Positions 27,011-54,106 of a DNA stretch of 64,000 nt are shown piece after piece. Origin of the DNA: an uncultured Alphaproteobacteria bacterium (GTDB taxonomy: Bacteria > Pseudomonadota > Alphaproteobacteria > VGEJ01); contig CAJWJK010000002.1 of assembly GCA_913041535.1 (NCBI GenBank), positions 138,793 through 202,792 on the forward strand. Reading direction: 5' to 3'. The position numbers were made by a program, and so were the translations under genes. Position 1 is the first letter of the stretch. Each line of letters begins with the position of its first letter. Under the pieces are notes generated by a model that worked only from the letters and a program-made list of their open reading frames with translations, searched no databases and was not told where the DNA came from.

Positions 27011-29914
27011 ATGCATATGAGCACGACTACATCTGATCTTAGTACACTAGACCAGGCTGACGATTTTTCGACTCGCCATATTGGGCCGACAGAAACTGAA
27101 ATTATGGAGATGCTTGAAGTGCTTGGCCTAAGTTCTCTTGATGCGATGGTTGATAGAGCAATCCCGGATTCTATTCGAACGAGAGAGCCGCTTGGATTGG
27201 ACAGTGGCCGCTCAGAATCCGAGGTGCTTGGAGCACTTTCGGAAATTGCATCAGAGAATAAGCTTATGCGATCTTTGATAGGGCTTGGGTACTATGGCTG
27301 TATAACTCCCAGCGTGGTGTTGCGCAACGTCATGGAGAATCCTGGTTGGTATACAGCTTATACCCCATACCAACCTGAAATCTCTCAAGGTCGCCTCGAG
27401 GCGTTGCTAAACTTTCAAACCATGGTTACTGACCTCACAGCTATGGAGATAGCAAATTCCTCTCTGTTGGATGAAGCAACTGCGGCAGCAGAGGCGATGA
27501 GTATGTGTTACCAGGTGAGTCGCAATAAGAGTAAGTCCTTCTTCGTTTCGGAAGATTGTTTTCCACAGACTATTGAGGTTTTAAGGACGAGGGCACGCCC
27601 TCTTGGTATTGATGTTATAGTTGGAAATATCCAAAATGATCTTGGCGCTCAGCCATTATTTGGTGGGCTCCTCCAGTATCCAACGAGAACAGGTGATATT
27701 GGGGCGCCAGCAGTTGACATTGAATTAATTCATGCGAATGGTGGGTTGGCCGTAGTAGCAAGCGACCTTCTAGCTCTTACATTAGTCACGCCCCCTGGAG
27801 AAATTGGTGCTGATGTGGCTGTGGGCTCAACGCAGCGGTTTGGTGTCCCGCTAGGTTTTGGCGGCCCTCATGCTGCTTTCTTTGCTACGTTGGAAAAATT
27901 CAAGAGGACTATGCCAGGTCGTATAGTCGGCCAGTCCATTGACAGGCGCGGCCGCACATCGTGTCGTTTAGCACTTCAGACTCGCGAGCAGCATATACGA
28001 CGCGAAAAGGCTACGAGCAATATTTGCACGGCGCAGGTTTTGCTTGCTGTGATGGCTGGTATGTACGCAGTTTACCATGGCCCTAAGCGTTTAAGTACTA
28101 TTGCACAACGTGTTCACCGCCTTACCTGTATTTTTGCTGAGGGTCTACGTCGCCAGGGGGGGGACGTCATCAATAAGACGTTCTTTGATACAGTGACAGT
28201 TAATGTTCTAGGGAAAGCTGAGATTGTGTGTCAGCGGGCCCGTGAGGCCGGCTTTAACTTGCGCCAAGATGAAGGGGATACGGTTGGGGTGTCTTTTGAT
28301 GAGACTGTGCGCCCAAAGGATCTAGTAAGTCTTTGGAGGGTATTTTCGGAACATTCTGTTGAGCTTCCATCGGTTTCGGAACTGGATACACTAAGGCTGG
28401 ATGGGTTTCCGAAAACAATGCAGAGAAAGACTTCGTTTCTTTCACATCCCATTTTTAACAGCTACCACTCAGAAACGGAGATGATGCGTTACCTGAGGAG
28501 GTTACAAGAGAAAGATATTGCACTTGATAGATCAATGATTCCTCTGGGGTCATGCACGATGAAGCTAAACGCGGCAACTGAGATGATTCCAATTACCTGG
28601 CCACAGTTTTCGTTAGTGCATCCGTTCTCGCCAAGGGATCAGGTTAAAGGGTATCAGAGGTTGGCTGATAGTCTTGAAAATATGCTCAAACGTATTACGG
28701 GGTTTGATGCAGTGAGCTTACAGCCAAACGCTGGCTCTCAGGGAGAGTATGCGGGCTTATTGGCAATAAGGGCTTATCATGAGAGTCGTGGAGAATCCCA
28801 ACGTAGGGTATGTTTAATACCCAGTTCAGCACACGGTACGAATCCCGCAAGTGCTGTGATGGCCGGTTGTACTGTTTCTGTGGTGAAATGTGACGACCAG
28901 GGCAATATTGATGTTGATGATCTTAGGTCACAAGCTGAGAGACACCAAAATGAGCTTGCAGCATTGATGGTGACCTATCCCTCAACTCATGGAGTATTTG
29001 AGGAAACAATAGGTGATGTTTGCAGTATTGTTCACAAGCATGGGGGGCAGGTCTACATGGATGGAGCTAATCTCAATGCGCTCGTGGGAGTATGTTTGCC
29101 TGCGGCTTTTGGCCCTGATGTGATGCATATCAATTTGCATAAGACATTCTGTATACCACATGGAGGTGGGGGGCCAGGAGTAGGACCAATAGGCGTCAAA
29201 GGACACCTAATACCATTCTTGCCAGGCCATCCCCTATGTGACAAGGGTCGCGAAGAAGGTGGTGTGGGGCCGATTGCTGCTGCGCCTTTGGGTAGCGCTG
29301 GGATATTACCAATTTCATGGGCATATATTTCTCTTATGGGCGAAGTAGGTGTGCGCCGAGCAACCGAGGTTGCTATTCTTAGCGCAAACTACATTGCTCA
29401 GCGTCTTTCTGAGCATTATCCCGTGCTATACACAGGGCCAAACGGACTTGTAGCGCACGAATGTATTATTGATGTTCGGCCGTTGCAGGAAGTGGCTGGG
29501 ATAACTGTTGAAGACATTGCTAAGAGACTCATGGATTATGGTTTTCATGCCCCCACTATGTCATGGCCTGTCGCTGGAACTTTGATGATTGAACCGACAG
29601 AAAGTGAATCAAAGAGAGAATTAGATAGATTCTGTGATGCAATGACTTCTATACGTATTGAAGTCGGGAGGATTGAGAAAGGCGAGTGGGATAAAGAGGA
29701 TAATCCACTCAAAAATGCGCCGCATAGCATTGATGATGTTTTAGACAGTGTATGGGCGCATTGTTATACCCGTGAAGATGCGGCATTTCCACTAGATCAC
29801 CTAAGGAAGGAGAAGTATTGGCCACCAGTGAGTCGCATTGACCAGGCCCATGGTGATCGGCACCTTGTCTGTGTATGCCCACCCTTAGATTCGTATCAAG
29901 ACGCAGCTGAATAA
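27011..29914 (+). CDS. gcvP: Glycine dehydrogenase (decarboxylating), single-chain P protein
   Basis: 967 aa covering both alpha and beta halves. The PLP-Lys region reads [22 protein letters not shown]. Confidence 0.95.
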
Positions 29915-30405: not shown

Positions 30406-31284
30406 ATGCCACGTTTGATGTTGACTTTACATAAATTTGCGGCGGCCAAGCTCAACTTGTACTTGCACGTGGTTGGTCGAAACCACGATGGCTACCATGA
30501 AATTGACAGTTTGGTGGTCTGGCTAGATGTGGGCGATAAACTTACTTTTTCGCTCGCAGATGATCTAAAGCTAGAGGTTAGCGGACCGTTTGCAAACGAA
30601 GTAGGCCCCAAAGAAGATAATCTAGTAGTACAGGCTGCAGAATACCTTCGTAAGTCCTGTTCAATAAGATTAGGAGCAAAGATTCATCTTGATAAGCAAT
30701 TGCCCGTAGGTGCAGGTATGGGTGGGGGCTCTTCCGATGCAGCAGCTGCGCTTCGGGCTCTCATGGAGCTATGGAAATGCGATCCAGGGGAGTTAAACAT
30801 GGATGCTCTTGTACGCTCGCTCGGTGCCGATGTGCCAGCTTGTATGATTGGTGCTCCGGCGCTAGTGAGTGGTGTGGGAGAAAGAGTCGTCCGATTACCA
30901 GAGTTGCCTATAATGCATGTTGTATTAGTTTGGCCAGGTGTCAAACTGGCAACATCGAGGGTGTTTGCTGCGCACCAAGTTAAGGACTCAAATAAACCAC
31001 TACGAATCAGTGACCTAGAGAGACGTGACAATTATCTAAAAGCACTATTGGATCGCAGCAATAATCTGCAAATTACTGCTCAGGGGCTATGTTCCGAAAT
31101 TGGCAAGGCATTGCAACTTCTAGCTTCTACAAAAGGTTGTGTTTTATCACGCATGAGCGGGAGCGGCTCAGCCTGTTTTGGTCTTTTTGAAACCAAGGAA
31201 GAGGCTCAAGGTGCAGCACTTTATATTTTGAAAAAGCGTCCTAGTTGGTGGGTAAGGGCTACACGACTTCGGAGTGAGACTTGA
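30406..31284 (+). CDS. ispE: 4-diphosphocytidyl-2-C-methyl-D-erythritol kinase
   Basis: AKLNLYLHVVGRNHDGYHEI is the N-terminal motif. PVGAGMGGGSSDAAAAL is the GHMP kinase ATP-binding motif. Confidence 0.9.
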   Translation: MPRLMLTLHKFAAAKLNLYLHVVGRNHDGYHEIDSLVVWLDVGDKLTFSLADDLKLEVSGPFANEVGPKEDNLVVQAAEYLRKSCSIRLGAKIHLDKQLPVGAGMGGGSSDAAAALRALMELWKCDPGELNMDALVRSLGADVPACMIGAPALVSGVGERVVRLPELPIMHVVLVWPGVKLATSRVFAAHQVKDSNKPLRISDLERRDNYLKALLDRSNNLQITAQGLCSEIGKALQLLASTKGCVLSRMSGSGSACFGLFETKEEAQGAALYILKKRPSWWVRATRLRSET

Positions 31285-32132: not shown

Positions 32133-32930
32133 TTAGTGTTCATTAACCACTGCACTTTTAAGATCAATCCTGATGGGTGCAATTATTGCAATCGCCTTTA
32201 ATTGGACAGGAATTAGTGGGGAGTTATTGAGGATTGATGCAAACCAAACTGAAACTGTTTCAGGGTCCTCTGTGCGGGGCAGCCAGGGCTTTGATGAAAA
32301 GCCAGCGATCCGCTCCAACGTAATGTCAATTCTTGTCGCGGGACCGTGATAAGCGGGGGTGTTCACATTTTCAATACCAATACTGTTAATCTGCAGATTG
32401 TAACGCCGCCGTCCATCGAACACTTTGAGTTCTCTCTCTAAACCAGCTGGGAGAATTGTGGTGGTAATATCGAGAGCAGCACTAAGGGGATCGATCGTCA
32501 TCCCGACGAGTTTGGGGGGCACTGAATCCCTTCCATCTTTAGCCGCGGTTGGGATTGCTGTGACTAACGGATATTGCCAATCGGAGTAATTTATTCTGAC
32601 TTTTCGGTAGGCCCCCAACCAATAATTATCGGCGCGGTGTTTCAGTGGCCTAAATTCCCTGTTCTCTACAATGCCTTCTGTGACTGCCTTAGAGGTAAAG
32701 CCAATCATGAAATCAAATAGTCCGACAGTTTTAGAATGGCTGGTTAATTTGTACCTGTCGTTAACAATGTCGGCAGTTAGAGCGAACTCATTAGCATGTA
32801 TTCCGCCAAGAAATAGGTGATAGGTCAAAAAGAATTCTTTTGCGGATGACGGTGATACGAACAGGAACAAAAAAAGGACCGTGAGACATTTTCTCGAAAA
32901 CAGACAGAAAAGAGCATTGTGATGAACCAT
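32133..32930 (-). CDS. Exported hypothetical protein
   Basis: A signal-peptide-like N-terminus (MVHHNALFCLFSRKCLTVLFLFLFVSPSSA) begins at the internal Met at 32930. The ORF-track start at 33050 adds 40 aa with no signal character. Confidence 0.4.
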   Translation of the reverse strand: MVHHNALFCLFSRKCLTVLFLFLFVSPSSAKEFFLTYHLFLGGIHANEFALTADIVNDRYKLTSHSKTVGLFDFMIGFTSKAVTEGIVENREFRPLKHRADNYWLGAYRKVRINYSDWQYPLVTAIPTAAKDGRDSVPPKLVGMTIDPLSAALDITTTILPAGLERELKVFDGRRRYNLQINSIGIENVNTPAYHGPATRIDITLERIAGFSSKPWLPRTEDPETVSVWFASILNNSPLIPVQLKAIAIIAPIRIDLKSAVVNEH

Positions 32931-33233
32931 AGCTATGCTTGGTCTATGCTGTGTGAACCCAAAGGTATTGGCGACGTGTCTTAAGAATCTACTGCGTGAT
33001 GACATAAGGCAAGGTGTTGCATAATTAACACAGAAACATTTTCCTGCCAAATATTGGTAGCAAGACGTTGCTAAACTCGACGAACAGGCTTATTAAACTT
33101 GGCAGATGTTTTGGTTTCCATGATATTTTTAGGGTTCTAGGGCATTAAATTTTTGAATTCCTGCCGAACCGCCTTGCGGTTTTTGGCAAAGGTGTTTAAT
33201 GTATCGTTGTGTTTTTGCGGGAGGTGCGCGGAG

Positions 33234-33500
33234 ATGTTGGCGAGAAAACAAATTAAGGCGCTAGCGTTAGGAGCTGCGTTAGTGATAGCACCAGCGGTCG
33301 GTTATGCACAGTCGCAGTCTGAACAGACTGGGCTGGGTAGTGCTGCGGGTCAGGAAGAAGTTGGGTTGCTGGGGGGTCTTTCGTCAGGAACTATAGCTAC
33401 TGCAGCAGTGGCGGCCGCGGTGGCCGTTGCGGTGGCAGCAGCGTTGGCTGATGACTCGGCGACTACGACGGGCGTCACGACTGGACCTCCTACGAACTAA
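33234..33500 (+). CDS. Small secreted Ala/Gly/Thr-rich protein, YjbE/GfcA-like
   Basis: The ATG at 33234 is preceded by GGGAGG. It has a signal peptide (ALALGAALVIAPAVGYA|Q) and then low-complexity A/S/T/G-rich sequence. That resembles the E. coli YjbE and GfcA threonine-rich exoproteins that head yjb and gfc operons. Confidence 0.45.
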   Translation: MLARKQIKALALGAALVIAPAVGYAQSQSEQTGLGSAAGQEEVGLLGGLSSGTIATAAVAAAVAVAVAAALADDSATTTGVTTGPPTN

Positions 33501-33560
33501 TACGGATTGCGGGTAGGGGCTAGCTAGTAGCAGCTCCGCCGTAGTGTTGGTTATGTTGAC

Positions 33561-33590
33561 AAACGGCCCTTTTGGGCCGTTTGTTTATGC
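33561..33590. terminator. Intrinsic-terminator-like GC hairpin between convergent genes
   Basis: AAACGGCCC-tttt-GGGCCGTTT is followed by GTTTAT on the plus strand. It sits between the 33234..33500 gene and the stop of the minus-strand 33585..34322 gene. Confidence 0.5.
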
Positions 33591-34322
33591 GGCAGGCTTT
33601 AACACCTCAATATCAATTGGTGGATATTCTTTGACGATGTGTTGTCGGCTTTTCCAGATAAAGCCATCATATGCATCTGCCCAGTAATAGTTGTCGAAAT
33701 GCCAGCGCATGGTTTGGGCGCTGTTGCGCTCTCGGACTAGTACTGTATCGAATTTGAGTTCGAGGATGGTTATAGTGACTTTTTTTACGGTCTCAAATAC
33801 AGAGGTGATTGGCACCCCGTAACGGTTCTCAGCATCAATATCTATTGTCCGTGTGAATCGTGTGTTAGGAGATAGTTCATGTAGCTGTCCGGAGACTGGG
33901 TCGCGCACATTCATGTAAGTATTTTTGATATTGCGGGGCAATCCAGCTGTTTTGACGAGTCGGCCCTGACGTGTAACAACTGCAACACGGTCCGCTGATA
34001 CGTAATGGAGGTCTTGCCCATCGTACCGGCTGAGGACTAAAAGTGAACGCTCGCCTTTACCAATCTTTGCCAGGACAGTTGCGTATGGTAGCTTTGTTAT
34101 GTCGTCTCGATGTATAGGGATATCGGGTTTGCCAAATACAGCGTACTGCATAGCGTCGGGCAGGTTGGCTAGGACGGGGATTTTGAAAGAGTCTCCGCAT
34201 CCTGCAGCTAGCATACCTACGCCTGACAGTAAGGCCATGCGTCTCGTTAGATTAAAGTGTGAGGGGAGATAATTATGCACCGAAAATCCAAACAATGGTT
34301 GAAAGGCATTGACAAAAGCCAT
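33585..34322 (-). CDS. YjbF/GfcB-family lipoprotein (group-4-capsule-type polysaccharide lipoprotein)
   Basis: The lipobox reads MLAAGC. The conserved core ...LPYATVLAKIGKGERSLLVLSRYDGQDLHYVSADRVAVVTRQGRLVKTAGL... resembles YjbF/GfcB. The start is ambiguous between Met1 at 34322 (an RR n-region, which would overlap the divergent gene) and Met29 at 34238. Confidence 0.55.
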   Translation of the reverse strand: MAFVNAFQPLFGFSVHNYLPSHFNLTRRMALLSGVGMLAAGCGDSFKIPVLANLPDAMQYAVFGKPDIPIHRDDITKLPYATVLAKIGKGERSLLVLSRYDGQDLHYVSADRVAVVTRQGRLVKTAGLPRNIKNTYMNVRDPVSGQLHELSPNTRFTRTIDIDAENRYGVPITSVFETVKKVTITILELKFDTVLVRERNSAQTMRWHFDNYYWADAYDGFIWKSRQHIVKEYPPIDIEVLKPAA

Positions 34323-37163
34323 ATTAGCCGATGTTTGGCCGTTATGGTGATCATAATGACATTTAGTTTGGTTACCAGTTTTGGCCTAGAGGCTCAGGAA
34401 GAGTCGGGCACACTTGAAGAATTTCTAGATAAACTGGAGGATTTGCAGAAAGATAGCATCGGAATGCCTTCACTTGAGGGCGGTTCTCCTTTGGATAAAA
34501 GTAGAGAAAAGTCAATTGATAGGAGTTTGGATCGCAATTCCATTGTAGGACGTCAGCGCAATATTGAGCGAGAACAAACTCTCGGTGGCTTCACAATGCG
34601 TGAGCAGTTTCTCATCCAGAAATTCTGTGATGGCACAATTAAGGATGAAGACGTACAGGTTGTGAGATTCTTTTCGCGCTTTTCACGGCTTGAGCAGGAC
34701 TATTGTCAACGTGTAGATCACTCACTATTCCAGTTTGGCTATAACCTATTTACTCTGGAGACTGACACCTCTGATGTGTTGCAGATCGGCGCGATTGGGG
34801 ATGATTACGTAGTAGGCATTGGTGATGAGTTTATAATAAGTTTTCAAGGTCCGAATTCCCAAACAATTACTAGACGTGTTGATCGTGAAGGTAGGTTGAT
34901 ACTTCAGGACCTTGGCGCAATACCCACCGTCGGGCGAGCTTTTAGCGAAGTCCGTAAGGACATTGAGGACAGGACCGAGAGTGTTCTTCTTGGAACGACC
35001 GTAATGGTATCCATCGGGGCAGTGCGTGAGCTCTCAGTTACTGTTGCAGGGGAAGTTGTAGTGCCAGGTACGTATACGCTTTCGAGCCTGTCAACGATGA
35101 TGGATGCATTAAGCAGTGCTGGAGGAATTCGTAAAACTGGTAGTTTGAGGACAATACAGGTAAAGCGTGGTGATTTAGTATTTTGGGTAGACGTTTATGA
35201 CCTGCACTTCGGCGCCTCAATGTCCAGCGATGTTCCATTGTATGACGGTGATTATATTACTGTACCCTTGATTGGGGCTACTGTTGCTGTTTCAGGTAAT
35301 GTTATGAGACCCGGTATATATGAATTGCCAGAAGGATCCAGCACGCTGCAAATAAAAGATTTATTGGATCTATCTGGCGGTACCTTGAGGCCTCGAGGAT
35401 ACCGACTTTCTCGTATCACCTTCGATGCAATAGGTCGCCAACTGATAGTTGAACAGACCGATGATGGCGCTGATCTAACGGACGGGGATATTTTGGTTGT
35501 TAATAGGCGTGAGGATGTTCAGTTAGGCGCAGTTGAGCTGATTGGGCATGTGAAAGTCCCTGGCTGGCGTGCTCTATCCAGTGCGCAAACCGCACGGGCT
35601 TTGATTCGTGATAATAATAGCCTGGAGGACAATCCTTATTTGTTATTCGCAGTAATTGAGACTTCTGACCCTGTCACTCAGGCAAGACGCATGTTCCCAA
35701 TAAGCCTTCTTTCAATCCTTGCGTCGCGAAGGGATTTTAAATTGAGAGATGGAGATAAACTTATTGTATTGAGCAACGAAGATATTCGCTATTTGTCGTC
35801 TCGAGATGTACAAGGAATCATTAGTGTAACACATACGGGAGAGAGAATTGGTTTAGATGGCTTGGCGAAGAGAACGTCGCCACTAAGCCTAGATCGAAGA
35901 AGGCTAGCGGAGACGTTGGTTGCAAATGCCCAGAAAAAACAGGATGTAAATCGTGAATCTACCTCAGACTCAGATGGTAATAGTGACAAGATAGGCGGTG
36001 ATGAGTGTGAAGGCCGTAAAAGGCTTGCGGCACTGGTTGCCCAATCACGACCCGGGCGCTTTGCAAGTGCGGTTCGTGCGGTGGGTTCTAGTCCTAATCA
36101 AAAAGACTTTGTTGATATGGAATGTCCTGCGATATTTCATAACTACCCCGACCTTCTTCCTCTCGCACTTGAACACGTCGCCTCAGTTAATGGAGAAGTG
36201 CGAATTCCAGGGCCTTATCCGGTACTACCAGAAACATCTCTTTCCCATATTCTGTCCGTAGTTGGTGGTACAACGAGAGCTGCGGATCTGGCAAGAGTAG
36301 AAATTCAACGGGGCTCTGGTTCAGGACGGTCAACAAGAGACGTAATAGATTTAGCTAGAGTTGAAACACGTAATGTCTCTTTGGGGCCTGGCGATTCTAT
36401 TAGATTTAGCCAAGTATTCACCGATCGTGATAATGGTCCAGTAGAAATCACCGGAGAAGTTGCGAAGCCAGGTTTCTACCATATTCGTCGCGGGGAAAGG
36501 CTTTCAGAACTTGTTGCAAGGGCTGGTGGCATGACACCGCAAGCCTACCCCTTAGGGGCTATATTCACCCGCGATCGTGTTCGGCAGGCACAACAAATTG
36601 GCTATGAGAGAGCTGCTCGAGAGCTAAACGCCTCTTTGGCTATAGCGGCGGCTCAAGAGGAGGTGAACCCTGTTGCGCTATCACAGGTCTTTGAAATGTT
36701 GTCTGAGCTAAATACGGTTCAGGCACTTGGTCGGGTGGTAATTGAAGCTGATCCAACTGTTCTCCAAGTAAGACCTGAATTAGATAGTGTTTTAGAGCCC
36801 GGGGATAAACTTTTTGTTCCTAAACGCCCCAGTTCCGTCCTTGTCATTGGTGATGTATTAAGTCCAGGAGCACTCCAGTTTATTTCAGGGACGAAGGTAG
36901 ACCAGTATATTAGACAAGCGGGAGGTTTCCAGAGGTCAGCTGATGAGGATCGGGTTTTTTTAGTTTATCCAAACGGGGAGGCGCAACCGGTTGCAGTTAG
37001 TGTCTGGAACTACACACCAGTTCAGGTTCCGCCTGGCAGCACGATCGTTGTGCCGAAGGATCCGGCTCCACTCAACATATTCCAAATAACTAAGGAATTT
37101 GCGCAAGTTGTAAGTCAGCTAGCCATAACTGCCGCGTCCCTAGCGGTGATTGGTAACAATTAA
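34275..37163 (+). CDS. Giant outer-membrane polysaccharide export (OPX) protein, Wza/GfcE-like, with a Poly_export domain and multiple SLBB domains
   Basis: 962 aa. The start is supported by GAGGGGAG. It has a signal sequence and a Poly_export-like segment (IGDEFIISFQGPNSQTITRRVDREGRLILQDLGAIPTVG). Four or five beta-grasp SLBB-like repeats follow (G-V-PG-Y-L...L..AGG). The C-terminal amphipathic helix LNIFQITKEFAQVVSQLAITAASLAVIG resembles the Wza outer-membrane helix. Confidence 0.7.
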   Translation: MHRKSKQWLKGIDKSHISRCLAVMVIIMTFSLVTSFGLEAQEESGTLEEFLDKLEDLQKDSIGMPSLEGGSPLDKSREKSIDRSLDRNSIVGRQRNIEREQTLGGFTMREQFLIQKFCDGTIKDEDVQVVRFFSRFSRLEQDYCQRVDHSLFQFGYNLFTLETDTSDVLQIGAIGDDYVVGIGDEFIISFQGPNSQTITRRVDREGRLILQDLGAIPTVGRAFSEVRKDIEDRTESVLLGTTVMVSIGAVRELSVTVAGEVVVPGTYTLSSLSTMMDALSSAGGIRKTGSLRTIQVKRGDLVFWVDVYDLHFGASMSSDVPLYDGDYITVPLIGATVAVSGNVMRPGIYELPEGSSTLQIKDLLDLSGGTLRPRGYRLSRITFDAIGRQLIVEQTDDGADLTDGDILVVNRREDVQLGAVELIGHVKVPGWRALSSAQTARALIRDNNSLEDNPYLLFAVIETSDPVTQARRMFPISLLSILASRRDFKLRDGDKLIVLSNEDIRYLSSRDVQGIISVTHTGERIGLDGLAKRTSPLSLDRRRLAETLVANAQKKQDVNRESTSDSDGNSDKIGGDECEGRKRLAALVAQSRPGRFASAVRAVGSSPNQKDFVDMECPAIFHNYPDLLPLALEHVASVNGEVRIPGPYPVLPETSLSHILSVVGGTTRAADLARVEIQRGSGSGRSTRDVIDLARVETRNVSLGPGDSIRFSQVFTDRDNGPVEITGEVAKPGFYHIRRGERLSELVARAGGMTPQAYPLGAIFTRDRVRQAQQIGYERAARELNASLAIAAAQEEVNPVALSQVFEMLSELNTVQALGRVVIEADPTVLQVRPELDSVLEPGDKLFVPKRPSSVLVIGDVLSPGALQFISGTKVDQYIRQAGGFQRSADEDRVFLVYPNGEAQPVAVSVWNYTPVQVPPGSTIVVPKDPAPLNIFQITKEFAQVVSQLAITAASLAVIGNN

Positions 37164-40128
37164 TCCGCATAACGACGGCAAGAGAGCTAGAAGAATGTGC
37201 GTGATTGTAAAACACGCTTTTCAAGTATTCCTGATAGTAGTTCTAGGAATTGGCGTGCTCAGGCTAACTTCTGTGGCGTCAGCGGAAGAGTTCTATATTC
37301 CATCGGTCAACAATTTTGGCGGTGTTGGCCTTATGATGACGAGGACTGCGCGTTTTGGAGCTGATGGAGAATTTGCAATCGGGTTCTCGGAGATAGATCC
37401 GTATCGGCGATATTTTATCACAGTTCAAGCTCTGCCATGGCTTGAGGCCACATTTCGCTACTCTGATCTAACAAAGATCCCCTTGGGAGGAGATACTTTT
37501 AAGGATCGGGGTGCGGACCTCAAATTTAAGTTATTGAACGAACAGAAGTACATACCAGCAGTAGCATTAGGCCTACAGGATGGTATTGGCACGGGCTTGT
37601 TTGATGGAGAATATATTGTCGCAAGTAAGAGGTATATGGATTTAGATTTCTCTCTAGGTATTGGATGGGGCTATCTGGGTACTCGCGGTGATATCAAGAA
37701 CCCATTGAGTCTTGTAACAACTTATTTTGATAACAGAGATGCAAATTCTGGTCGTGGCGGTAAATTTAATCCCGCTAATTACTTCTCTGGCAAGAGAGCG
37801 TCTCTTTTTGGGGGAGTGGAGTATTTCACACCTATTGATGGGTTGACCCTCAAAGTAGAGTACGAAGGCAATGATTATTCTGATGAGCCCCGTACAGAGT
37901 TTGGCAACAAAGTAGCTGTTGCAACATCGCCAATAAACTTTGGCATAAATTATAGACCGTTCTCGTGGCTTGATATCGCTGCTGGCCGTGAGCGGGGTTA
38001 TGAAGGTGTGGTCCGTATGGCTATGAGAGCAAACTTCCACACATCTAAAACACCGAAGTTTGATCTACCTCCCGTGCCTTTAAAATCTCGTATGGCAGTC
38101 AAACAGAAAGCAGCGCATGATTCTCTACCAGCCATCGAGGATGTTACGTCAACGCTGAATGATGACTTTGCGATAATAGGACTTAACGTAGATTCTGTTG
38201 AGTTTACCAATCAGAAGGTATTTGTGCGTGTATCGGATGTTATAGACCGTGTGTCGGATTCGGAATTGATACGGGCAGCGCATAGCGCATCGAACGCTTT
38301 TAGCGATGCCGTATCGTCCGTAACTATAATAGGGTCTGATTCGCTTGATGGTATAGAAACGGTTTCATATACAGCATCGGAGCTAACGCAGTTTCAAATT
38401 GTCGATTACTTATTTGATGATCTGGATAAATATGGAGTAGAGGCAGTTGAGTTATCTCACACTGAAGCACAGGTATATCTTAACTCTAGCCTCTCTCGAG
38501 TAGAACAGGAGAAGGCGGCGCTGGCAGTTGTCACAGTCGCCCCTACGCCCTTAGAAAAGGTCACATTTGTCAATATTTCGGACGATCAGGTGTTTAATCG
38601 TTTAACTATATCACGAAAGGAGATCACCAGATCATCACTTGTGAATCAGATGTTTGATGGACTTGAGGAGATGGGATTCTCTGTTGAGGCCGTAGACGTT
38701 TCAGAGGGCGCGGCTACCGTGACTGTTATGTCTAAAACAAATGTTAGCGCGGAGGTGTATCGTCGCGCAGCATGGATTGTTGCTGATTCGGTTGTCTCTT
38801 CAGTCGAAGAGGTAACACTTGTCGGACTGGAAAATGGCCGTGAGATAGAACGTATAACTGTGTTAGCGAGCAGTGACAGCTATGTTGGAGTTAATTCAGG
38901 TAGTAGCGTCATAGACGTATCTAGCATTGAATCTGCGGATGATATCTTTGACGAACTAGCCCAACAGGGTGCACAGGTTGATGCGTTACACTTTACACCT
39001 ACTCGCGCTACGGTATTTGTCACTCCGACCCGTTTTCGGGAGGCAGCACGAAATATTGGGCGGCCGGCTAGGGTTATAGCAAACAGCGCTCCTGCTACGG
39101 TTGAGCAAATATCAATCGTTACTATGGCCGATGGTATGCCCATTAACCATGTAACATTAATGCGCCGTGATCTTGAACGGGCTGTTTCTCGTGAGGGCAG
39201 TGTTGAAGAGTTATGGAAGCAGGCGGAAATGAATGGTGGAGCTGAAGTTCCACAAACTTCCGTGGTCCCGGCGCAAAGATACCCATCATTTAATTGGAGT
39301 TTAACGCCGAATACTCGACAGTACATACATGATGAGGCTCAATTCCTACTGTATCAGTTATTTGCAAGGCTAAATGGAACTCTTGAATATAGTAGGGGGT
39401 TGAGTTTCGAGGGCACCTTATTTGCTAATCTCTATAATAACTTTGAAAAGGCCAGCACAGATTCAAATAGTCTGTTACCAAGGGTACGTAGTGAAATTGT
39501 TAAGTATCTTCAAGGTACGGATAACAAGATCCTTCGGCTTACTGCAAACTATCGTTTTTCGCCAAAGACTGATGTTTATGCACGTGTCTCAGGTGGCATT
39601 TACGAAGAAATGTTTGGGGGCATTGGCGCGGAGGTGCTTTATAGGCCCTTCGGATCACGTTGGGCTATTGGAGCTGATGTTAACCGAGTAAAACAGCGTG
39701 ATTTCCAAGGGGGGTTTGGGTTCTTCGATTATGAAGTAACGACCGGACATGCAAATATCCACTATCAGTTGCCCGTTTATGACATGTCTGCTGCGGTGTA
39801 TCTTGGCCAGTACTTAGCAGGTGATAGAGGCGCTTCATATTTTGTTTGGCGAAATTTTGAAAATGGTATGTCCGTTGGGGGATGGGTGACGCTAACTAAT
39901 GTTCCAGCGAATGTCTTCGGGGAAGGAAGTTTTGATAAGGGGTTTTTCATTCGGATACCGTTCGACGTATTTCTTATGAAATCAACACGAAAGTCCGGTG
40001 TCTTTTCTTTCCAGCCCTTATCGCGGGACGGGGGTCAAATATTGTTAGGCAGCAAACAGCTCTACGAGCTTACTCGAAGTGGAAGTCTTGGTGAACTTTC
40101 TCGAGATTGGGGCTTGGTATTACACTAG
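37150..40128 (+). CDS. YjbH/GfcD-family outer-membrane protein with an internal insertion of four tandem modules
   Basis: 992 aa. The N-terminus (...FYIPSVNNFGGVGLMMTRTARFGADGEFAIGFSEIDPYRRYFITVQALPWLEATFRYSDL...KDRGADLKFKLL...PAVALGLQDGIGTGLFDGEYIVASKRY...GIGWGYLG) matches the YjbH family. The C-terminus is rich in aromatic and Gly residues, consistent with a beta-barrel. The middle region holds four modules of about 87 aa. Confidence 0.7.
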   Translation: MVTINPHNDGKRARRMCVIVKHAFQVFLIVVLGIGVLRLTSVASAEEFYIPSVNNFGGVGLMMTRTARFGADGEFAIGFSEIDPYRRYFITVQALPWLEATFRYSDLTKIPLGGDTFKDRGADLKFKLLNEQKYIPAVALGLQDGIGTGLFDGEYIVASKRYMDLDFSLGIGWGYLGTRGDIKNPLSLVTTYFDNRDANSGRGGKFNPANYFSGKRASLFGGVEYFTPIDGLTLKVEYEGNDYSDEPRTEFGNKVAVATSPINFGINYRPFSWLDIAAGRERGYEGVVRMAMRANFHTSKTPKFDLPPVPLKSRMAVKQKAAHDSLPAIEDVTSTLNDDFAIIGLNVDSVEFTNQKVFVRVSDVIDRVSDSELIRAAHSASNAFSDAVSSVTIIGSDSLDGIETVSYTASELTQFQIVDYLFDDLDKYGVEAVELSHTEAQVYLNSSLSRVEQEKAALAVVTVAPTPLEKVTFVNISDDQVFNRLTISRKEITRSSLVNQMFDGLEEMGFSVEAVDVSEGAATVTVMSKTNVSAEVYRRAAWIVADSVVSSVEEVTLVGLENGREIERITVLASSDSYVGVNSGSSVIDVSSIESADDIFDELAQQGAQVDALHFTPTRATVFVTPTRFREAARNIGRPARVIANSAPATVEQISIVTMADGMPINHVTLMRRDLERAVSREGSVEELWKQAEMNGGAEVPQTSVVPAQRYPSFNWSLTPNTRQYIHDEAQFLLYQLFARLNGTLEYSRGLSFEGTLFANLYNNFEKASTDSNSLLPRVRSEIVKYLQGTDNKILRLTANYRFSPKTDVYARVSGGIYEEMFGGIGAEVLYRPFGSRWAIGADVNRVKQRDFQGGFGFFDYEVTTGHANIHYQLPVYDMSAAVYLGQYLAGDRGASYFVWRNFENGMSVGGWVTLTNVPANVFGEGSFDKGFFIRIPFDVFLMKSTRKSGVFSFQPLSRDGGQILLGSKQLYELTRSGSLGELSRDWGLVLH

Positions 40129-40130
40129 TT

Positions 40131-41282
40131 TTAAGAAGGACGAGACAAACTCTCGTAGACTTTCTGATACATTTCGACAACGTTATTAATAGAGTAGTGT
40201 TCGGTGGCCCGTTGTCGCGCTAATCTTCCCAGGTGGTTCTGATTTTTGCGGATTTTCTCAAGTAGTTTTAGGCAGGCGTTTGCCATGAGTTTAGGGTCCC
40301 TGGGGGGGACTGAAAACCCAGTTGTATCCACGATTTGTCGAGAATCGCCAACGTCAGTAGTAACGCAAGGTACCCCAGATGCCATTGCTTCAACTAGTAC
40401 ATTTGGAAAGGCCTCTCCGTGCGAGGATGCGACAGCAACGATGTCCAATGCAGACATTATCTTGGGCATATCATTTCGGATGCCAAGTAGGGAGACTCGA
40501 TCTTCAAGGTGGTATTTATATACCCAATCCTTCAGTTGTTGGTTTTTAAAAGAGATGTTTTCCCCACAAAAGAGATAACGCACGCTATCGTGCTGTCGGG
40601 ACATAATTTCTGCTGAGCTAAGAAAACCTTCGTGATCTTTCTGTGAGTGAAAACGCCCAATTAATCCTATCAGTGGCTGTTCAGGCCCTATGCCAAGTTG
40701 AAGGCGCATACGTTCTCTAGAAGCTAGGTCAGGTTTAAACTTCTCTATATCTACACCGTTAGGAATTATTTTAAACTTGTTAGACGGGTAACCAAGTTCT
40801 ACATGAATGTCTCGCGCAGTTTCTGAATTACATATGATCTTTTGTGGTACCCAACGGGATAGTAATGCACAAGTCCGTGCAGTGAGTATGGTGCTGCGCT
40901 TATCAGTCTTGGGGTTTAAATCAGCATGTCGGATATTCCAAACTATATTGTTCTGGCGTGCTAAGCGGCCAGCTATACCCCCAACGAGATCCGCGTGATA
41001 TAGCCATGTTTGTACCACATCGGGTTTTTGTTTTCTGATGTGGTTTACTAGTTTACTTACGCTTAATGCGGCGGCGGGACCGTGGCTCATATTTAAGGCA
41101 TTCACTGACATTCCTAGTTCTTGAAACCTTCTTCCTAATGTATTGAGGTCGTTTAAAGAGGTAACGCTCTGCTGGTATTTGAAAGGATCAAGGCGCTCGA
41201 GAAGATGAGAGAGCATCGTTTGGGCGCCGCCAATTGGGAGGCCGGTAATGACGTGATGAATTTTTTGGGGCCTTAAGCGCAT
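40131..41282 (-). CDS. Glycosyltransferase family 4 (GT-B)
   Basis: 383 aa. The C-terminal EAFPNVLVEAMASGVPCVTTDVG is an E-x7-E-like GT4 motif. Confidence 0.8.
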   Translation of the reverse strand: MRLRPQKIHHVITGLPIGGAQTMLSHLLERLDPFKYQQSVTSLNDLNTLGRRFQELGMSVNALNMSHGPAAALSVSKLVNHIRKQKPDVVQTWLYHADLVGGIAGRLARQNNIVWNIRHADLNPKTDKRSTILTARTCALLSRWVPQKIICNSETARDIHVELGYPSNKFKIIPNGVDIEKFKPDLASRERMRLQLGIGPEQPLIGLIGRFHSQKDHEGFLSSAEIMSRQHDSVRYLFCGENISFKNQQLKDWVYKYHLEDRVSLLGIRNDMPKIMSALDIVAVASSHGEAFPNVLVEAMASGVPCVTTDVGDSRQIVDTTGFSVPPRDPKLMANACLKLLEKIRKNQNHLGRLARQRATEHYSINNVVEMYQKVYESLSRPS

Positions 41283-41384
41283 TGGCGAACCGTTTGTATG
41301 TTTGTCTGGTTGAGTAATTTAACTATATTGGCACTCTGTAGATTGTTTGTTAATGCATACTTTGGAGGTTACTACCGTTATACC

Positions 41385-42347
41385 ATGCAGCGCTCAAATC
41401 CCAACCTAGGAAGTCAGCCGGTTGAACAGGTCGTTCGTGCTGACGATGTAATAGACCTAAGGTACCTGTTCAGAAGCTGGTGGAGGGGAAGCTGGTTTAT
41501 TATTTTAGCTGCGTTGGCAGGCTTGGCGGTCGGTCTATGGGAGATGACGAAATTTCAACCTATGTATACTGCAGTTATGTTGGTATCTCCGGCTGGTGGA
41601 ACTGACGGAGGTGGTCCCGATTTAAGCGGATTAAAAAGTTTTGCGGCGGTTTTTGGAGTTGGCGGTAGCAGCGGGACCGAAGGTGGTACGGGTAGCTCGT
41701 TCGATCGTTTCGAAGTCCTTCTTGGATCTGTAATTTTGGCTGAACGGCTGCAAGAACGGTATGGTTTGCTCCAGACTGTGTACCGAGGTGCGTGGGATCC
41801 TGATGCACAGGACTGGATCCGGCCGTCGGGCACGCGGTTTGAGCGGAATGAGGCGTTGAGAGAATTCTTCAAGCTTCGAACGTGGAAGGCGCCCAGTATC
41901 TCGTCTCTTGCCCGGTTTATAGGATCAACTGTAAGAGTTGTCACACTTCAGGCAAATGGATTCCGTCAAGTCTCTGTTGTGCATGAGGATCCTCAGTTTG
42001 CAGAGTATTTATTGAGAACTGTCTATTATGAAGCAGATGAGCTTTTACGTGAGCTAGACCAAGAGAGTACGAGGACCCAGAAGCAATACCTTGAGAATAA
42101 AATAGCGACTAGCAAGATCGTTGAGATTCGTACCGGCCTAGTAGGCCTACTGATGCAACAAGAGAATAAGGCAATGCTTTTGCAAAGTGATGCGCCATAC
42201 GCCGCATACATCATTCAGCCGATTAGCGTAGGTAACAGGCCAACGGCGCCAAGCCCGCGGATGTATGCAGGAGCAGGTGTTGCGGTCGGGGCATTTATAG
42301 GACTTTTAGTTGTTTCATTCATATCGATGTTTCGTCGCGAGACTTAA
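41385..42347 (+). CDS. Wzz-like polysaccharide co-polymerase / chain-length determinant (PCP without a kinase domain)
   Basis: The N-terminus IDLRYLFRSWWRGSWFIILAALAGLAVGLW is the Wzz motif plus TM1. A coiled periplasmic region follows. The C-terminus is Pro-rich and carries TM2 (PISVGNRPTAPSP...GVAVGAFIGLLVVSFI). An alternative start is the TTG at 41298. Confidence 0.55.
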   Translation: MQRSNPNLGSQPVEQVVRADDVIDLRYLFRSWWRGSWFIILAALAGLAVGLWEMTKFQPMYTAVMLVSPAGGTDGGGPDLSGLKSFAAVFGVGGSSGTEGGTGSSFDRFEVLLGSVILAERLQERYGLLQTVYRGAWDPDAQDWIRPSGTRFERNEALREFFKLRTWKAPSISSLARFIGSTVRVVTLQANGFRQVSVVHEDPQFAEYLLRTVYYEADELLRELDQESTRTQKQYLENKIATSKIVEIRTGLVGLLMQQENKAMLLQSDAPYAAYIIQPISVGNRPTAPSPRMYAGAGVAVGAFIGLLVVSFISMFRRET

Positions 42348-42371: not shown

Positions 42372-43484
42372 ATGACCTTTAGTTGGAGTATCTTCTTTGT
42401 TTTTCTTTTTCTGTATCGCTGCTTTGTATCCATCATTGCACAATCATCAGTGCAAGAGCTCGGTGATGCTAGTCTGTATCAGCGTGGCGGACGAACTGTG
42501 GGATCAGGGTTTTCGGCCTTGCTTTACGAGGGTCAATCCTTCAATGTGTCAGCCTTTCGGCACATAGGAACGCATGTTACTGAATCGATAGGTACTTTAT
42601 TAAGTATAGCCGGTGGTGGTAATGCGTACCTCACCAATTTGGGTTTTCAAACAATAGCGTTTGTGGGCTTGGTTAAACTGTTGATGTCAGTCGAGCCAAG
42701 CATTCGTCGTTGGTTAGCTCTCGTTTTGATTCTGCCGTCATTTAACTTCTGGACATCAATAGCTTCGAAAGAGGCATTGGTGACGCTCTGCATTTGCATG
42801 ATACTCGCGAACTATGTTCGTATGCAAAAACTTCAGAAGGTTAGAATTATTTCATTAGCAATATTCTCTATCCTTCTCGCTCTTTTGAAACCTCACTATT
42901 TTATTGCCGTAGCTTATCTTTTCGGCGCGACAGTCTTAGCACAAAGGTTTCGGCAGCGTGGAGTTGTGGCTTTATCTGCTGCAGTGATGTCTTTAGCCAT
43001 GTTATACCCAATTGCTACGTTTTTAGATAAGCAAGCTCGCGTAATTGCTACCCACTTCAGAGTTAGTGATAATACTCTTACTAGAGAAATCTATTTTGTA
43101 CATGAGCTGGATATCCTTTTTAAGGCGCCATACGGAATGTTTCAAAGTTTCTTTGGTCCAACAGTGTCCGAGGCTGTTTCAGGTACTCTCGCGATGATGT
43201 CTTTCATCGAAAGCTTATTTCTTGTGGGACTTCTGTTGATGATGATATTGCATCGATTTTGGGATATTCGAGCATTTGAAGCAATTATTGGCTCCGTTAC
43301 GTTGTTTTGGATTTTATTTGTCACTTATCCATTTGGGATTATGAATCCTGGTTCAGCGGTGAGGTACCGGTCGGGGTATCTAGTGCTAGTAGTGTTTGTG
43401 GTTATTTTTGTCTTTGTCCGAGGATTCAATGAGCGTGAAAAGACCACGAGGAGTAGCATGAAAACACCTGCTCTTGCTGAGTGA
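42372..43484 (+). CDS. Polytopic membrane protein, candidate polysaccharide polymerase (Wzy/EpsG-like)
   Basis: 370 aa with about 9 or 10 predicted transmembrane segments. It has no nucleotide-binding motif. It lies between the Wzz-like gene and the glycosyltransferases. The assignment is by context only. Confidence 0.35.
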   Translation: MTFSWSIFFVFLFLYRCFVSIIAQSSVQELGDASLYQRGGRTVGSGFSALLYEGQSFNVSAFRHIGTHVTESIGTLLSIAGGGNAYLTNLGFQTIAFVGLVKLLMSVEPSIRRWLALVLILPSFNFWTSIASKEALVTLCICMILANYVRMQKLQKVRIISLAIFSILLALLKPHYFIAVAYLFGATVLAQRFRQRGVVALSAAVMSLAMLYPIATFLDKQARVIATHFRVSDNTLTREIYFVHELDILFKAPYGMFQSFFGPTVSEAVSGTLAMMSFIESLFLVGLLLMMILHRFWDIRAFEAIIGSVTLFWILFVTYPFGIMNPGSAVRYRSGYLVLVVFVVIFVFVRGFNEREKTTRSSMKTPALAE

Positions 43485-43525: not shown

Positions 43526-44284
43526 GTGTCAGTAGAAAGTATTTTAAAAAACGCTTTTCGTCCTGGTTATTTTCCAGTGTTAACGACGAAGATATGGACG
43601 CGGATTGTAGAGGTTCGTCTGCATCATGACAGAGTTAGGGCGAAGACGTGGTGCCATGAAAATGCAGTGGACGTTACAACATTTACAACCATAAAGGATC
43701 CTAATCTTTGGAAGGAGAGTCTTGAGTATGCATCTGTCCTAGGCAGTGAAGCGGAAATAAAGCTGCGACACCTTGATGTTGAACTTGGCGGTGGGGGGTT
43801 TGTAGAACTTGTATACTTTCTTACGCGTCTTTTGCGTCCAACAATCATAGTTGAGACGGGAGTCGCAGCCGGATTCACTACCCAAGTGATACTCGAGGCT
43901 CTATCCCGTAACGGTAGTGGCTATCTATATAGTAGCGATTTTCCTTATTTTCGACTAAGAGATCCAGAAAAGTATATTGGGGTATTAGTGGATGACTCAT
44001 TAAAGAGTCGATGGGAATTGCTTACAAGGGGAGATAGGGAGAATTTGAAAAATATCACTGAACATATCGATCATATTGATATATTTCACTATGATTCCGA
44101 TAAGTCTTATCGCGGTAGAGCTATTGCCCTTGACATAGTCAAAAACTATCTGAAACCAGGAAGTGTACTAATCATGGATGATATTGATGACAATCTCTAT
44201 TTTCGTGATTTCGTTTACCATCTAAAGTGTAAGTACTACGTTTTTCCATGCAAACAGAAGTACGTAGGACTGGCGTTTATCTAG
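43526..44284 (+). CDS. Class I SAM-dependent O-methyltransferase (TylF/Methyltransf_24-like)
   Basis: IVETGVAAGFTT is motif I. FHYDSDKSYRG...GSVLIMDDI resembles the FIDADHSY...DD pattern of sugar O-methyltransferases. Confidence 0.5.
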   Translation: MSVESILKNAFRPGYFPVLTTKIWTRIVEVRLHHDRVRAKTWCHENAVDVTTFTTIKDPNLWKESLEYASVLGSEAEIKLRHLDVELGGGGFVELVYFLTRLLRPTIIVETGVAAGFTTQVILEALSRNGSGYLYSSDFPYFRLRDPEKYIGVLVDDSLKSRWELLTRGDRENLKNITEHIDHIDIFHYDSDKSYRGRAIALDIVKNYLKPGSVLIMDDIDDNLYFRDFVYHLKCKYYVFPCKQKYVGLAFI

Positions 44285-44317
44285 AATGCGGTGTGAACAT
44301 CCTGCCGTGCATATTAG

Positions 44318-45397: not shown

Positions 45398-45422
45398 GCG
45401 TGACAGCGAGTTTGGATTCTTT

Positions 45423-46169
45423 ATGATAATTTCTCATAAACATAAGTTCATTTTCATTAAAACCCGAAAGACTGCGGGGACCTCTCTGGAGGTAGCGTTA
45501 TGCAAATATCTTGGTAAGAGTGATATTATTACGCCAATCAGTCCAGAAGATGAAAATACACGTCGTGCCATGGGCTTTATAGCAAGGCAAAACTACAAGA
45601 AATCAATATCAGAGTTCAGAGTAAATGATTTAGTTTATGTGGCGCGTCGTATGCGCAATAGGATGATAGGAAAGCATGGGACATCTTCTGGTGTATGGCC
45701 TTCGCAGTTTTACAATCATATGCCATCGCATCTTGTCCGCGACCAAATAGGCATAGCCATATGGAATCGCTATTACAAATTCTCTATAGAGAGAAACCCT
45801 TGGGATGCAGCAGTATCCCGATACTTTTGGCACTACGGCAATAAGAAGATTTCGCACACAAAGGATAGATTCCGGAATTTCATCCAGAGCGAAATTGGTA
45901 GTCATGTACCAAACTACGATCTTTATAGCATTAATGGAGTGCCAGCGATGGACCTAGTCGTACGGTATGAGGCCCTCTTTTCTGGATTGGAGAAAGTATC
46001 TAGGGTTATTGGATTGTCCGAAAATATTCACGAAGTGATGAAGGAAATAAGGGCAAAAGCACAATTTCGTAGAAACGTTGATTATCGGGAAATGTATGAT
46101 GAGGATAGCAGAATGTTGATTGCCAAACACTTTGCCCGAGAAATATCGTTATTTGGTTATGTATTTTAA
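45423..46169 (+). CDS. Sulfotransferase-family protein (PAPS-dependent, carbohydrate sulfotransferase-like)
   Basis: KFIFIKTRKTAGTSLE is a 5'-PSB-like P-loop. ERNPWDAAVSRYF is a 3'-PB-like R-x-P...S motif. Confidence 0.55.
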   Translation: MIISHKHKFIFIKTRKTAGTSLEVALCKYLGKSDIITPISPEDENTRRAMGFIARQNYKKSISEFRVNDLVYVARRMRNRMIGKHGTSSGVWPSQFYNHMPSHLVRDQIGIAIWNRYYKFSIERNPWDAAVSRYFWHYGNKKISHTKDRFRNFIQSEIGSHVPNYDLYSINGVPAMDLVVRYEALFSGLEKVSRVIGLSENIHEVMKEIRAKAQFRRNVDYREMYDEDSRMLIAKHFAREISLFGYVF

Positions 46170-46174
46170 CGGCC

Positions 46175-47311: not shown

Positions 47312-47364
47312 GGTCTTCTAGCTCAAATGTTATTGGCTGTTCGGTTGCTATACGGAACTAGTGC

Positions 47365-48054: not shown

Positions 48055-48096
48055 TATCGTGGAAGGAATATCTGTTTTGGAACGGTTGATTGTGTA

Positions 48097-52973: not shown

Positions 52974-52994
52974 AGCCGGGTATTTATTTCATTT

Positions 52995-54098: not shown

Positions 54099-54106
54099 AG
54101 AGAGAC

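Follow-up and report, generated by a model that had tools for sequence, protein, structure and literature searches.

A Wza-like export protein with a built-in GfcC-like unit beside divergent yjbF and an enlarged yjbH in an uncultured alphaproteobacterium

Positions 33234 to 40128 of a 64,000-nucleotide stretch of DNA from an uncultured Alphaproteobacteria bacterium (contig CAJWJK010000002.1; the whole stretch is hereafter called the window) carry four adjacent homologues of the Escherichia coli yjbEFGH/gfcABCD genes, and this locus very probably forms the part of a capsule or exopolysaccharide export route that lies at the outer membrane, built from known parts. Its central 962-aa product is a Class 2 outer-membrane polysaccharide export (OPX) protein that combines a Wza-type Poly_export domain, six SLBB modules, a GfcC-like unit and a C-terminal helix, and the fused, inverted layout of the module is the normal form in related species, not an oddity of the window. 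Confidence is high for the identity and general role of the locus; the assignment of specific tasks to OPX and to its double-barrel neighbour YjbH is advanced tentatively, and falls somewhat short of probable. A preceding sequence-only reading had correctly recognized the four homologues (three of them with strong statistics, the small protein by indirect support), and all four open reading frames (ORFs) appear at the same coordinates in the ORF list of the window:

33234-33500, plus strand: small gene, YjbE/GfcA-like secreted or membrane protein, 88 aa (ORF, composition, synteny)
33558-33585, no strand assigned: hairpin, 12-bp stem, within the 84 nt that separate the small gene from yjbF (fold)
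33585-34322, minus strand: YjbF/GfcB-family lipoprotein gene, 245-aa ORF (PF11102, BLASTP to GfcB)
34275-37163, plus strand: Class 2 OPX gene, 962 aa (Pfam, AlphaFold2, Foldseek)
34800-35024, plus strand: OPX Poly_export domain (PES, Wza D1), residues 176-250 (PF02563, profile, hhalign)
35034-35858, plus strand: OPX SLBB modules 1-3, residues 254-528 (custom SLBB profile, model)
36177-37064, plus strand: OPX SLBB modules 4-6, residues 635-930 (SLBB profile, PF06251, BLASTP)
37077-37154, plus strand: OPX hydrophobic C-terminal helix, residues 935-960 (DSSP on the model, conservation)
37150-40128, plus strand: YjbH/GfcD-family double-barrel outer-membrane protein gene, 992-aa ORF (PF06082)
37369-38034, plus strand: YjbH N-terminal 12-strand barrel, residues 74-295 (model, BLASTP)
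38125-39162, plus strand: four tandem periplasmic middle-domain modules of YjbH, residues 326-671 (model, module profile)
39286-40011, plus strand: YjbH C-terminal 13-strand barrel, residues 713-954 (model)

Pfam recognizes two SLBB families in the OPX protein, both above cut-off (PF10531 SLBB, 139.4 bits, E=3e-41; PF22461 SLBB_2, 110 bits, E=6e-32), together with Poly_export (PF02563, residues 176-247, 32.9 bits, E=7.7e-8, for a curated cut-off of 28 bits) and GfcC_C (PF06251, residues 864-929, 41.5 bits, E=1.4e-10, for a cut-off of 20 bits). BLASTP relates residues 177-331 to GfcE, the Wza paralogue (E=2e-13), and aligns residues 761-934 with positions 62-235 of GfcC (E=1e-10) and with YjbG (E=2e-12), while a profile of the OPX family matches Wza (2j58, E=1.2e-24) and, over residues 787-931, GfcC (3p42, E=2.9e-12). 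Comparison with GfcE by hhalign gives a probability of 98.7%, the alignment being limited to the Poly_export and SLBB part. The AlphaFold2 monomer model (mean predicted local distance difference test, pLDDT, of 83.7) retrieves both Wza (E=7e-15) and GfcC (3p42, E=1.2e-11) with Foldseek. The merger of GfcC and Wza in one protein, proposed by the sequence-only reading, is borne out by these BLASTP matches to GfcE, GfcC and YjbG and Foldseek matches to Wza and GfcC, and the families that it had named are found in Pfam, where the YjbF, YjbH, Poly_export, SLBB and GfcC_C models were all matched far beyond chance; it had, however, called Wza a secretin, which Wza is not.

In the model, a Sec signal peptide without lipobox is followed by a helical N-terminal region, the Poly_export domain, SLBB modules 1 to 3, a disordered acidic linker (about residues 524-574), SLBB modules 4 to 6 and the C-terminal helix. 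The custom SLBB profile places the first three modules at residues 254-334, 336-418 and 419-528, with beta-grasp secondary structure in the model, and the last three at 635-720, 722-852 and 854-957. The last two modules and a helical hairpin (residues 767-814) make up the GfcC-like unit, the hairpin lying in the fifth module as it does in GfcC. By analogy with the Wza-Wzc structures cited in PMC12819527, where Wza D1 contacts Wzc, the Poly_export domain would be expected to contact an inner-membrane polysaccharide co-polymerase (PCP). At the other end of the protein, the helix called by DSSP is 26 residues long and has a mean hydrophobicity of 0.45 (GfcC helix, -0.11; GfcE helix, 0.08); its core SQLAITAASLAVI hardly varies across 83 homologues. 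Its length, hydrophobicity and near-invariance suggest membrane insertion, and the modelled helix is a candidate for one that enters the outer membrane.

Fusions between Wza and GfcC are known as Class 2 OPX proteins, typified by KpsD (PMC9603273), and the protein of the window carries the Poly_export domain, the one to six SLBB modules and the C-terminal GfcC-like module that define this class. It shares with KpsD of the E. coli group 2 system the order Poly_export-SLBB(n)-GfcC-C-terminal helix and a Sec signal peptide without lipobox, and its six SLBB modules fall within the published range of one to six (PMC9603273). Class 2B, which represents about 11% of OPX proteins, has a median length of 824 aa (PMC9603273), whereas the window OPX reaches 962 aa and its helix is not matched as Wza_C.

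The gene downstream encodes a clear YjbH homologue, which matches PF06082 with 687.9 bits (E=2.5e-206) in two stretches jointly spanning the profile. Residues 28-393 align with positions 6-365 of E. coli YjbH and residues 621-980 match its other half (BLASTP E=5e-61 and 6e-55 for the two halves). The model of this protein (pLDDT 84.2, predicted template modelling score 0.73) consists of a 12-strand barrel, a middle region, a 13-strand barrel and short C-terminal helices, which is the published plan of GfcD (PMC11494523, PMC8346858), whose laterally open C-terminal barrel is also 13-stranded (PMC11494523). Its fold matches the FapF, KdgM, PelB, PgaA and BcsC barrels, no solved structure being related to YjbH by sequence, and the model agrees with PMC9603273.

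The size of this homologue, noticed from its 992-aa ORF (977 aa when started at ATG 37195), arises because the middle domain is present in four tandem copies instead of the single one of E. coli. In the model, each module comprises about 80 aa arranged as helix-strand-strand-helix-strand-strand, and pairwise identities range from 18 to 33%. With a profile built from these modules, four copies are detected in the window YjbH and in that of the related locus L001 (P0123, 49-50% identical), one copy each in E. coli YjbH and GfcD, and between one and four copies among 124 proteins (120 YjbH relatives, the window YjbH, its L001 orthologue and the E. coli pair), protein length following copy number. 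Module 4 matches positions 275-347 of the Pfam YjbH profile (E=1e-8); it thus corresponds to the E. coli middle domain, and modules 1 to 3 are diverged duplicates. Among 1.84 billion representative proteins, the module profile gave 220 matches, none with more than four true copies; no listed match exceeds the size of YjbH, and those short matches that were inspected turned out to be fragments or spurious, so that the domain was not found in other contexts. It has no significant sequence relative in the PDB and no Pfam family besides YjbH; PMC8346858 gives it the label "peptidoglycan-binding". The four-fold array appears to be described nowhere in the open-access literature searched, and the amplification may be regarded as a clade-wide feature that is modestly new. 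A correspondence between the number of YjbH modules and the length or SLBB number of OPX was considered and rejected, as OPX has six SLBB modules at every YjbH copy number from one to four (56 of 57 complete pairs); the correlation of module number with ORF length is weak (rho 0.30, on imprecise starts).

The divergent gene between the small gene and OPX belongs to the YjbF family, with a match to PF11102 over profile positions 2-189 of 189 (157.6 bits, E=3.8e-46) and to E. coli GfcB (BLASTP E=3e-24). An LAAGC motif, a putative lipobox, is seen in its sequence, the start codon being ambiguous. The first gene of the module is of a different nature: its product is rich in a few residues (A+G+T+S+V = 65%) and comprises a signal peptide, a TGLGSAAGQ motif, a hydrophobic Ala/Val segment, an acidic patch and a Thr-rich tail. 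The same plan, with a KTGxGAAAGQ-type motif and a Thr/Ser-rich tail, is found at the equivalent position in 33 of 44 related loci. No Pfam family matches the window protein itself, PF11106 (YjbE) included, whereas the syntenic orthologue in L012, to which it is connected by phmmer, reaches 28.2 bits with this family for a cut-off of 27.9, these sequences being of low complexity. The small protein can accordingly be called YjbE/GfcA-like by architecture, composition and synteny, a designation that has indirect support.

The strand of yjbF is opposite to that of its three neighbours in the module (minus strand, 33585-34322), as the sequence-only reading had pointed out. Candidate starts for this gene lie on the minus strand at 34322, 34238 and 34214, the last being that of the public gene callers, which on identical DNA report 962 aa for OPX, 977 aa for YjbH (ATG 37195) and 209 aa for YjbF. 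If yjbF began at 34322, 48 nt of it would run across the OPX start on the other strand, so the true start is probably ATG 34238 or position 34214; the two divergent genes would then be separated by about 36-60 nt. The OPX start (ATG 34275) is preceded by GAGGGGAG, a good Shine-Dalgarno sequence, and that of the small gene (ATG 33234) by GGGAGG, both read from the sequence. Depending on the YjbH start chosen, the genes of OPX and YjbH either share 14 nt or leave 31 nt between them. Between the convergent small gene and yjbF, the region 33495-33600 folds with -48.1 kcal/mol (z = -4.0), and the hairpin at 33558-33585, with its perfect 12-bp stem and UUUU loop, is probably a bidirectional terminator; it is absent from the listing of a consensus terminator scan. 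A promoter and terminator scan of positions 32900-41400 gave counts no higher than the shuffled expectation.

To what extent is this arrangement specific to the window? Homologues were detected in large numbers (599 for OPX, 522 for YjbH), most of the best 120 OPX homologues measuring 850-1050 aa and nearly all of these sharing its Pfam domain set. When one genome per species was scanned, relatives came to light in at least 473 species, and the related loci compared here are the best 80 of these genomes, nearly all from Alphaproteobacteria and mostly metagenome-assembled genomes; the cultured genera among them are Inquilinus, Niveispirillum, Telmatospirillum, Emcibacter, Iodidimonas and Pedomonas. 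In 54 of 61 loci, YjbH lies downstream of OPX and shares its strand. Of the 72 loci with sufficient upstream DNA, 46 contain YjbF, and in all 46 it is divergent from OPX and adjacent to it, one of them with an ORF overlap like that of the window. In the 59 loci for which both flanks are available, YjbH and YjbF occur together in 38, YjbH alone in 14, neither in 7 and YjbF alone in none, a nested co-occurrence that fits a YjbF acting through YjbH. Niveispirillum and Telmatospirillum carry the OPX-YjbH pair with YjbF, and Iodidimonas carries the pair, YjbF not being seen near the locus.

The position of the module on the chromosome is also partly kept. The ispE gene (30406-31284 in the window) is found near the module in 36 of the 80 loci (L005-L084), and the genes flanking the module in a 61%-identical relative are those of the window; on these grounds the export module looks like a vertically inherited chromosomal feature. 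Split orientation and an enlarged YjbH, presented as anomalies by the sequence-only reading, are thus the norm of this clade. In a few loci neither YjbH nor YjbF was seen in the DNA fetched, up to 10 kb on each side of OPX (L041, L047, L049-L052 (Inquilinus), L033, L071 and L077), the downstream DNA of L049 and L052 being too short to tell whether YjbH is present. Six-SLBB OPX proteins of this kind may work without YjbH and YjbF, or their partners may be encoded elsewhere.

Downstream of the module, the window contains the following features:

40131-41282, minus strand: GT4 glycosyltransferase gene, convergent with yjbH (Pfam; homologues in 18 of 80 loci, semi-conserved)
41298-42347, plus strand: kinase-less PCP, 349 aa (profiles; homologues in 17 of 80 loci)
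42372-43484, plus strand: polytopic membrane protein, 370 aa (about seven hydrophobic segments; homologues in 11 of 80 loci)
43526-62884, no single strand: organism-specific glycan cassette, leuA at its end (Pfam and NCBIfam matches)
51183-52973, minus strand: fused ABC exporter among the sulfotransferases (PglK, E=4e-94, MsbA and HepA as best matches)

The PCP, which starts 1.2 kb downstream of the module, is the likely inner-membrane partner of OPX. It has two transmembrane segments (64-86 and 321-347) around a periplasmic domain, as well as homology to Wzz: its own Pfam Wzz score is just below cut-off (24.9 bits for 25.5), and 12 of the 18 members of its family match Pfam Wzz and 3 match GNVR. 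The profile of this family matches Wzc (E=1.3e-9) better than Wzz (1e-4) or KpsE (7e-4). Nine of the 11 loci with a homologue of the 370-aa polytopic protein carry the PCP as well. The family of this polytopic protein gathers 97 homologues, all annotated as hypothetical and none with a Pfam domain, and the protein was rejected as a recognizable Wzy, no relative being found in Pfam, NCBIfam or the PDB even with a profile of 49 sequences; it may be an unrecognized polymerase of the Wzy type.

The glycan cassette includes GT4 transferases, methyltransferases, sulfotransferases, an ATP-binding cassette (ABC) exporter, an ATP-grasp enzyme, a dioxygenase and genes for the modification of amino and acid sugars. 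Two sulfotransferases are firm (50123-51061 and 52995-54098) and a third is borderline (45423-46169, 21.0 bits for a cut-off of 22), in line with the adjacent sulfotransferase-carrying glycan locus that had been noticed from the sequence. The ABC exporter, whose best matches (PglK, MsbA and the heterocyst polysaccharide exporter HepA) are all far under the curated cut-offs, could be a lipid-linked glycan flippase replacing Wzx. Genes between 54107 and 62884, mostly on the minus strand, encode a PIG-L deacetylase, a class-III aminotransferase, a formyltransferase, an aldo/keto reductase, a metallo-beta-lactamase-fold protein, a TylF-like methyltransferase, an ATP-grasp enzyme, a PhyH dioxygenase and a Kdo-type CMP-sugar cytidylyltransferase, the latter scoring below its cut-offs; this set suggests an unusual decorated acidic or amino sugar. 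Another gene of the cassette (47986-50013, plus strand, 675 aa, or 638 aa in the public calls) has an FkbM methyltransferase domain confined to residues 386-542, and no family match was obtained over its first ~385 residues. The organism-specific cassette suggests that this uncultured marine bacterium bears a surface glycan that is both sulfated and methylated.

How does this locus compare with characterized export systems? In E. coli K-12, the reference yjbEFGH and gfcABCDE loci are co-directional and GfcE is a separate protein of 379 aa. Counterparts of A/E, B/F, C/G (here as a domain), D/H and GfcE/Wza (here as a domain) are all present in the window, and YjbH keeps the plan of a 12-strand barrel, a middle domain and a 13-strand barrel. 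The differences with gfcABCDE-etp-etk are that C is joined here to the C-terminal end of the Wza-like protein, a protein with six SLBB modules in place of two, that B is divergent, that the middle domain of D is present four times and not once, and that the PCP lacks a kinase domain, no Etk/Etp pair being found in the window. The separate GfcE, Etk and Etp of the E. coli-type group 4 system are likewise absent from the window ORFs scanned (those of at least 150 aa and the small gene). KpsD systems differ in another way, since the same scan found no KpsMT, KpsE, KpsC or KpsS in the window, nor any Capsule_synth match, and OPX is paired here with YjbF and YjbH. The sole ABC protein is the fused PglK/MsbA/HepA-like exporter, and the PCP profile resembles Wzc more than KpsE, features that do not correspond to the group 2 Kps type.

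Rearranged versions of these genes have been reported before. According to the descriptions in PMC8592465, the direction of wza differs from that of orf1-wbfDCB in Vibrio anguillarum, and OtnG of Burkholderia thailandensis is a GfcC-GfcD fusion of 995 aa; differently oriented wza genes and Gfc fusions are features shared with the window, but GfcC is fused to the barrel in OtnG as described, and to the Wza-like OPX here. The Class 3 OPX genes of Myxococcus xanthus are also paired with PgaA/BcsC-like outer-membrane beta-barrels (PMC9601211, PMC12819527). These OPX proteins are however short (median about 256 aa), with neither GfcC nor C-terminal helix, and their barrels are single and have no YjbF or YjbE partner.

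A mechanism can be proposed from work on E. coli Wza-Wzc and on GfcB-GfcC-GfcD, where a GfcB-GfcC heterodimer (dissociation constant about 100 nM) binds GfcD (PMC8592465). By analogy, OPX would oligomerize into a periplasm-spanning channel whose Poly_export ring docks on the PCP, and polymer made by the cassette (glycosyl-, methyl- and sulfotransferases, the ABC exporter or flippase, and possibly a polymerase) would pass up the SLBB stack and leave through the OPX C-terminal helices inserted in the outer membrane. The built-in GfcC unit would bind the YjbF lipoprotein, and both would dock on the YjbH middle domains, coupling the OPX channel to the YjbH double barrel; PMC9603273 had already suggested that a GfcC module built into OPX might bind a partner barrel. 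Through its laterally open C-terminal barrel, YjbH would then deliver lipid-anchored chains to the outer leaflet, possibly by lateral release of a lipid anchor, or keep the polymer at the surface in another way.

Several observations weigh against this scheme, or against parts of it. The C-terminal helix of OPX has low pLDDT in the monomer model, and neither Pfam nor hhalign to GfcE detects Wza_C in it. For 7 of 61 OPX genes there is no YjbH in the downstream DNA fetched (up to 10 kb), which indicates that OPX and YjbH are not strictly obligate partners. The cassette genes before 56.4 kb were compared with the 80 loci: none of these loci has a homologue of the sulfotransferases, of four methyltransferase-type genes, of PIG-L or of the aminotransferase, whereas 2 loci have one of the ABC exporter, and 9 and 11 have homologues of the two GT4 genes. 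Most of the genes compared are thus absent from relatives, and what links the cassette to the exporter is adjacency. No Wzx, initiating phosphoglycosyl transferase or tyrosine kinase/phosphatase was found among the window ORFs scanned, nor any gene for the synthesis of 3'-phosphoadenosine-5'-phosphosulfate. The earlier description of the locus as a complete secretion system therefore went too far, as Wzx, the initiating transferase, the tyrosine kinase/phosphatase and KpsMT are all missing from the scanned ORFs. Finally, the open-access literature yielded no experiment on any member of the clade.

The least unlikely alternative concerns the route of the polymer across the outer membrane. The OPX helix might only anchor or dock the protein, and the polymer might exit through the C-terminal barrel of YjbH, in a composite translocon comparable to that of Myxococcus Class 3 proteins, a possibility raised for Class 2 OPX in PMC9603273. 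Such a route would account for the missing Wza_C signal, for the adjacency and common orientation of OPX and YjbH in 54 of 61 loci, and for the resemblance of the YjbH model to the exopolysaccharide porins PelB, PgaA and BcsC. Against it stand a helix of 26 residues that is strongly hydrophobic and nearly invariant, the seven related OPX genes that have no adjacent YjbH, and the modelling of the GfcD-C barrel as a lateral gate for lipid anchors, and not as a wide polymer pore. Exit through YjbH is for these reasons considered possible, and doubtful.

Another question is whether the module serves the neighbouring cassette at all. It could export a polymer encoded elsewhere, its adjacency to the sulfotransferase-rich genes being incidental: the position of the module is kept (ispE nearby in 36 of 80 loci), while the sulfotransferases, methyltransferases, PIG-L and aminotransferase are without homologue in any related locus, and L001 has different downstream genes. 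Capsule and O-antigen loci are, however, usually laid out in this way, with a conserved export block beside a variable biosynthesis block, and the PCP and the polytopic protein, which recur in 17 and 11 loci, link both blocks; moreover, no second polysaccharide locus was seen in the 64 kb. An incidental neighbourhood is accordingly rather unlikely.

The export channel and the YjbH group could also be two machines with only regulation and location in common, OPX and PCP exporting free polymer while YjbE, YjbF and YjbH form an LptD-analogous device inserting a lipid- or protein-linked glycan. The E. coli yjbEFGH genes, which have no neighbouring Wza gene, the lateral-gate model for GfcD, and the suggestion that the Ser/Thr-rich GfcA is possibly a glycosylated cargo itself (PMC8592465) are all compatible with this separation. 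Yet OPX here covalently includes the GfcC unit, whose E. coli counterpart binds GfcB and GfcD, YjbF was never found beside OPX without YjbH, and the genes of OPX and YjbH lie 31 nt from each other or, with the other YjbH start, overlap by 14 nt. Two functionally separate machines appear improbable.

An architecture both unusual and previously undescribed, specific to this kind of organism, is very improbable: every difference listed from E. coli is real, and we found no open-access paper on the four-fold array or on the module of this clade, but the association of Class 2 OPX with YjbH is already tabulated (in PMC9603273, with five YjbH homologues listed in the vicinity of Class 2A genes and 19 for Class 2B), so that the locus is unusual compared with E. 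coli only, the OtnG fusion and the V. anguillarum wza orientation are published (as reported in PMC8592465), and the layout recurs in dozens of the fetched loci, with a relative in at least 473 species genomes.

Returning to a coupled export machine in which OPX conducts the polymer, a stronger version can be formulated, in which the GfcC-fused OPX, YjbF and the multi-middle-domain YjbH constitute one obligate composite translocon. The middle-domain array would be a periplasmic rail binding several OPX-borne GfcC-YjbF units, or the cell wall, and the laterally open YjbH barrel would insert lipid-anchored sulfated chains while OPX conducts polymer. We regard it as speculative and quite unlikely; if true, it would represent a distinct mode of outer-membrane polysaccharide export, and the GfcABCD proteins, long without an assigned role, would gain a function.

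As it stands, the locus is an ordinary example of a widespread module and leaves the knowledge of capsule export unchanged, its main value being comparative. In hundreds of alphaproteobacterial species, GfcC is permanently joined to a Wza-like channel, and the fusion gene is kept beside YjbH and, in most loci, YjbF. Such a fixed fusion may be read as natural genetic evidence for the physical coupling proposed between OPX and GfcB-GfcC-GfcD. The variation from one to four copies of the YjbH middle domain offers a simple handle on the role of this domain, and the cultured carriers in Niveispirillum, Telmatospirillum and Iodidimonas could be used as experimental systems.

The region upstream of the module is of a housekeeping type, with a cytochrome oxidase operon, glycine cleavage genes and ispE, and no other polysaccharide locus was seen across the 64 kb. 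Two tandem glycine riboswitch aptamers (25208-25408, plus strand, 67.2 and 34.9 bits) precede the glycine cleavage genes, including gcvP (27011-29914), which is an ordinary arrangement.

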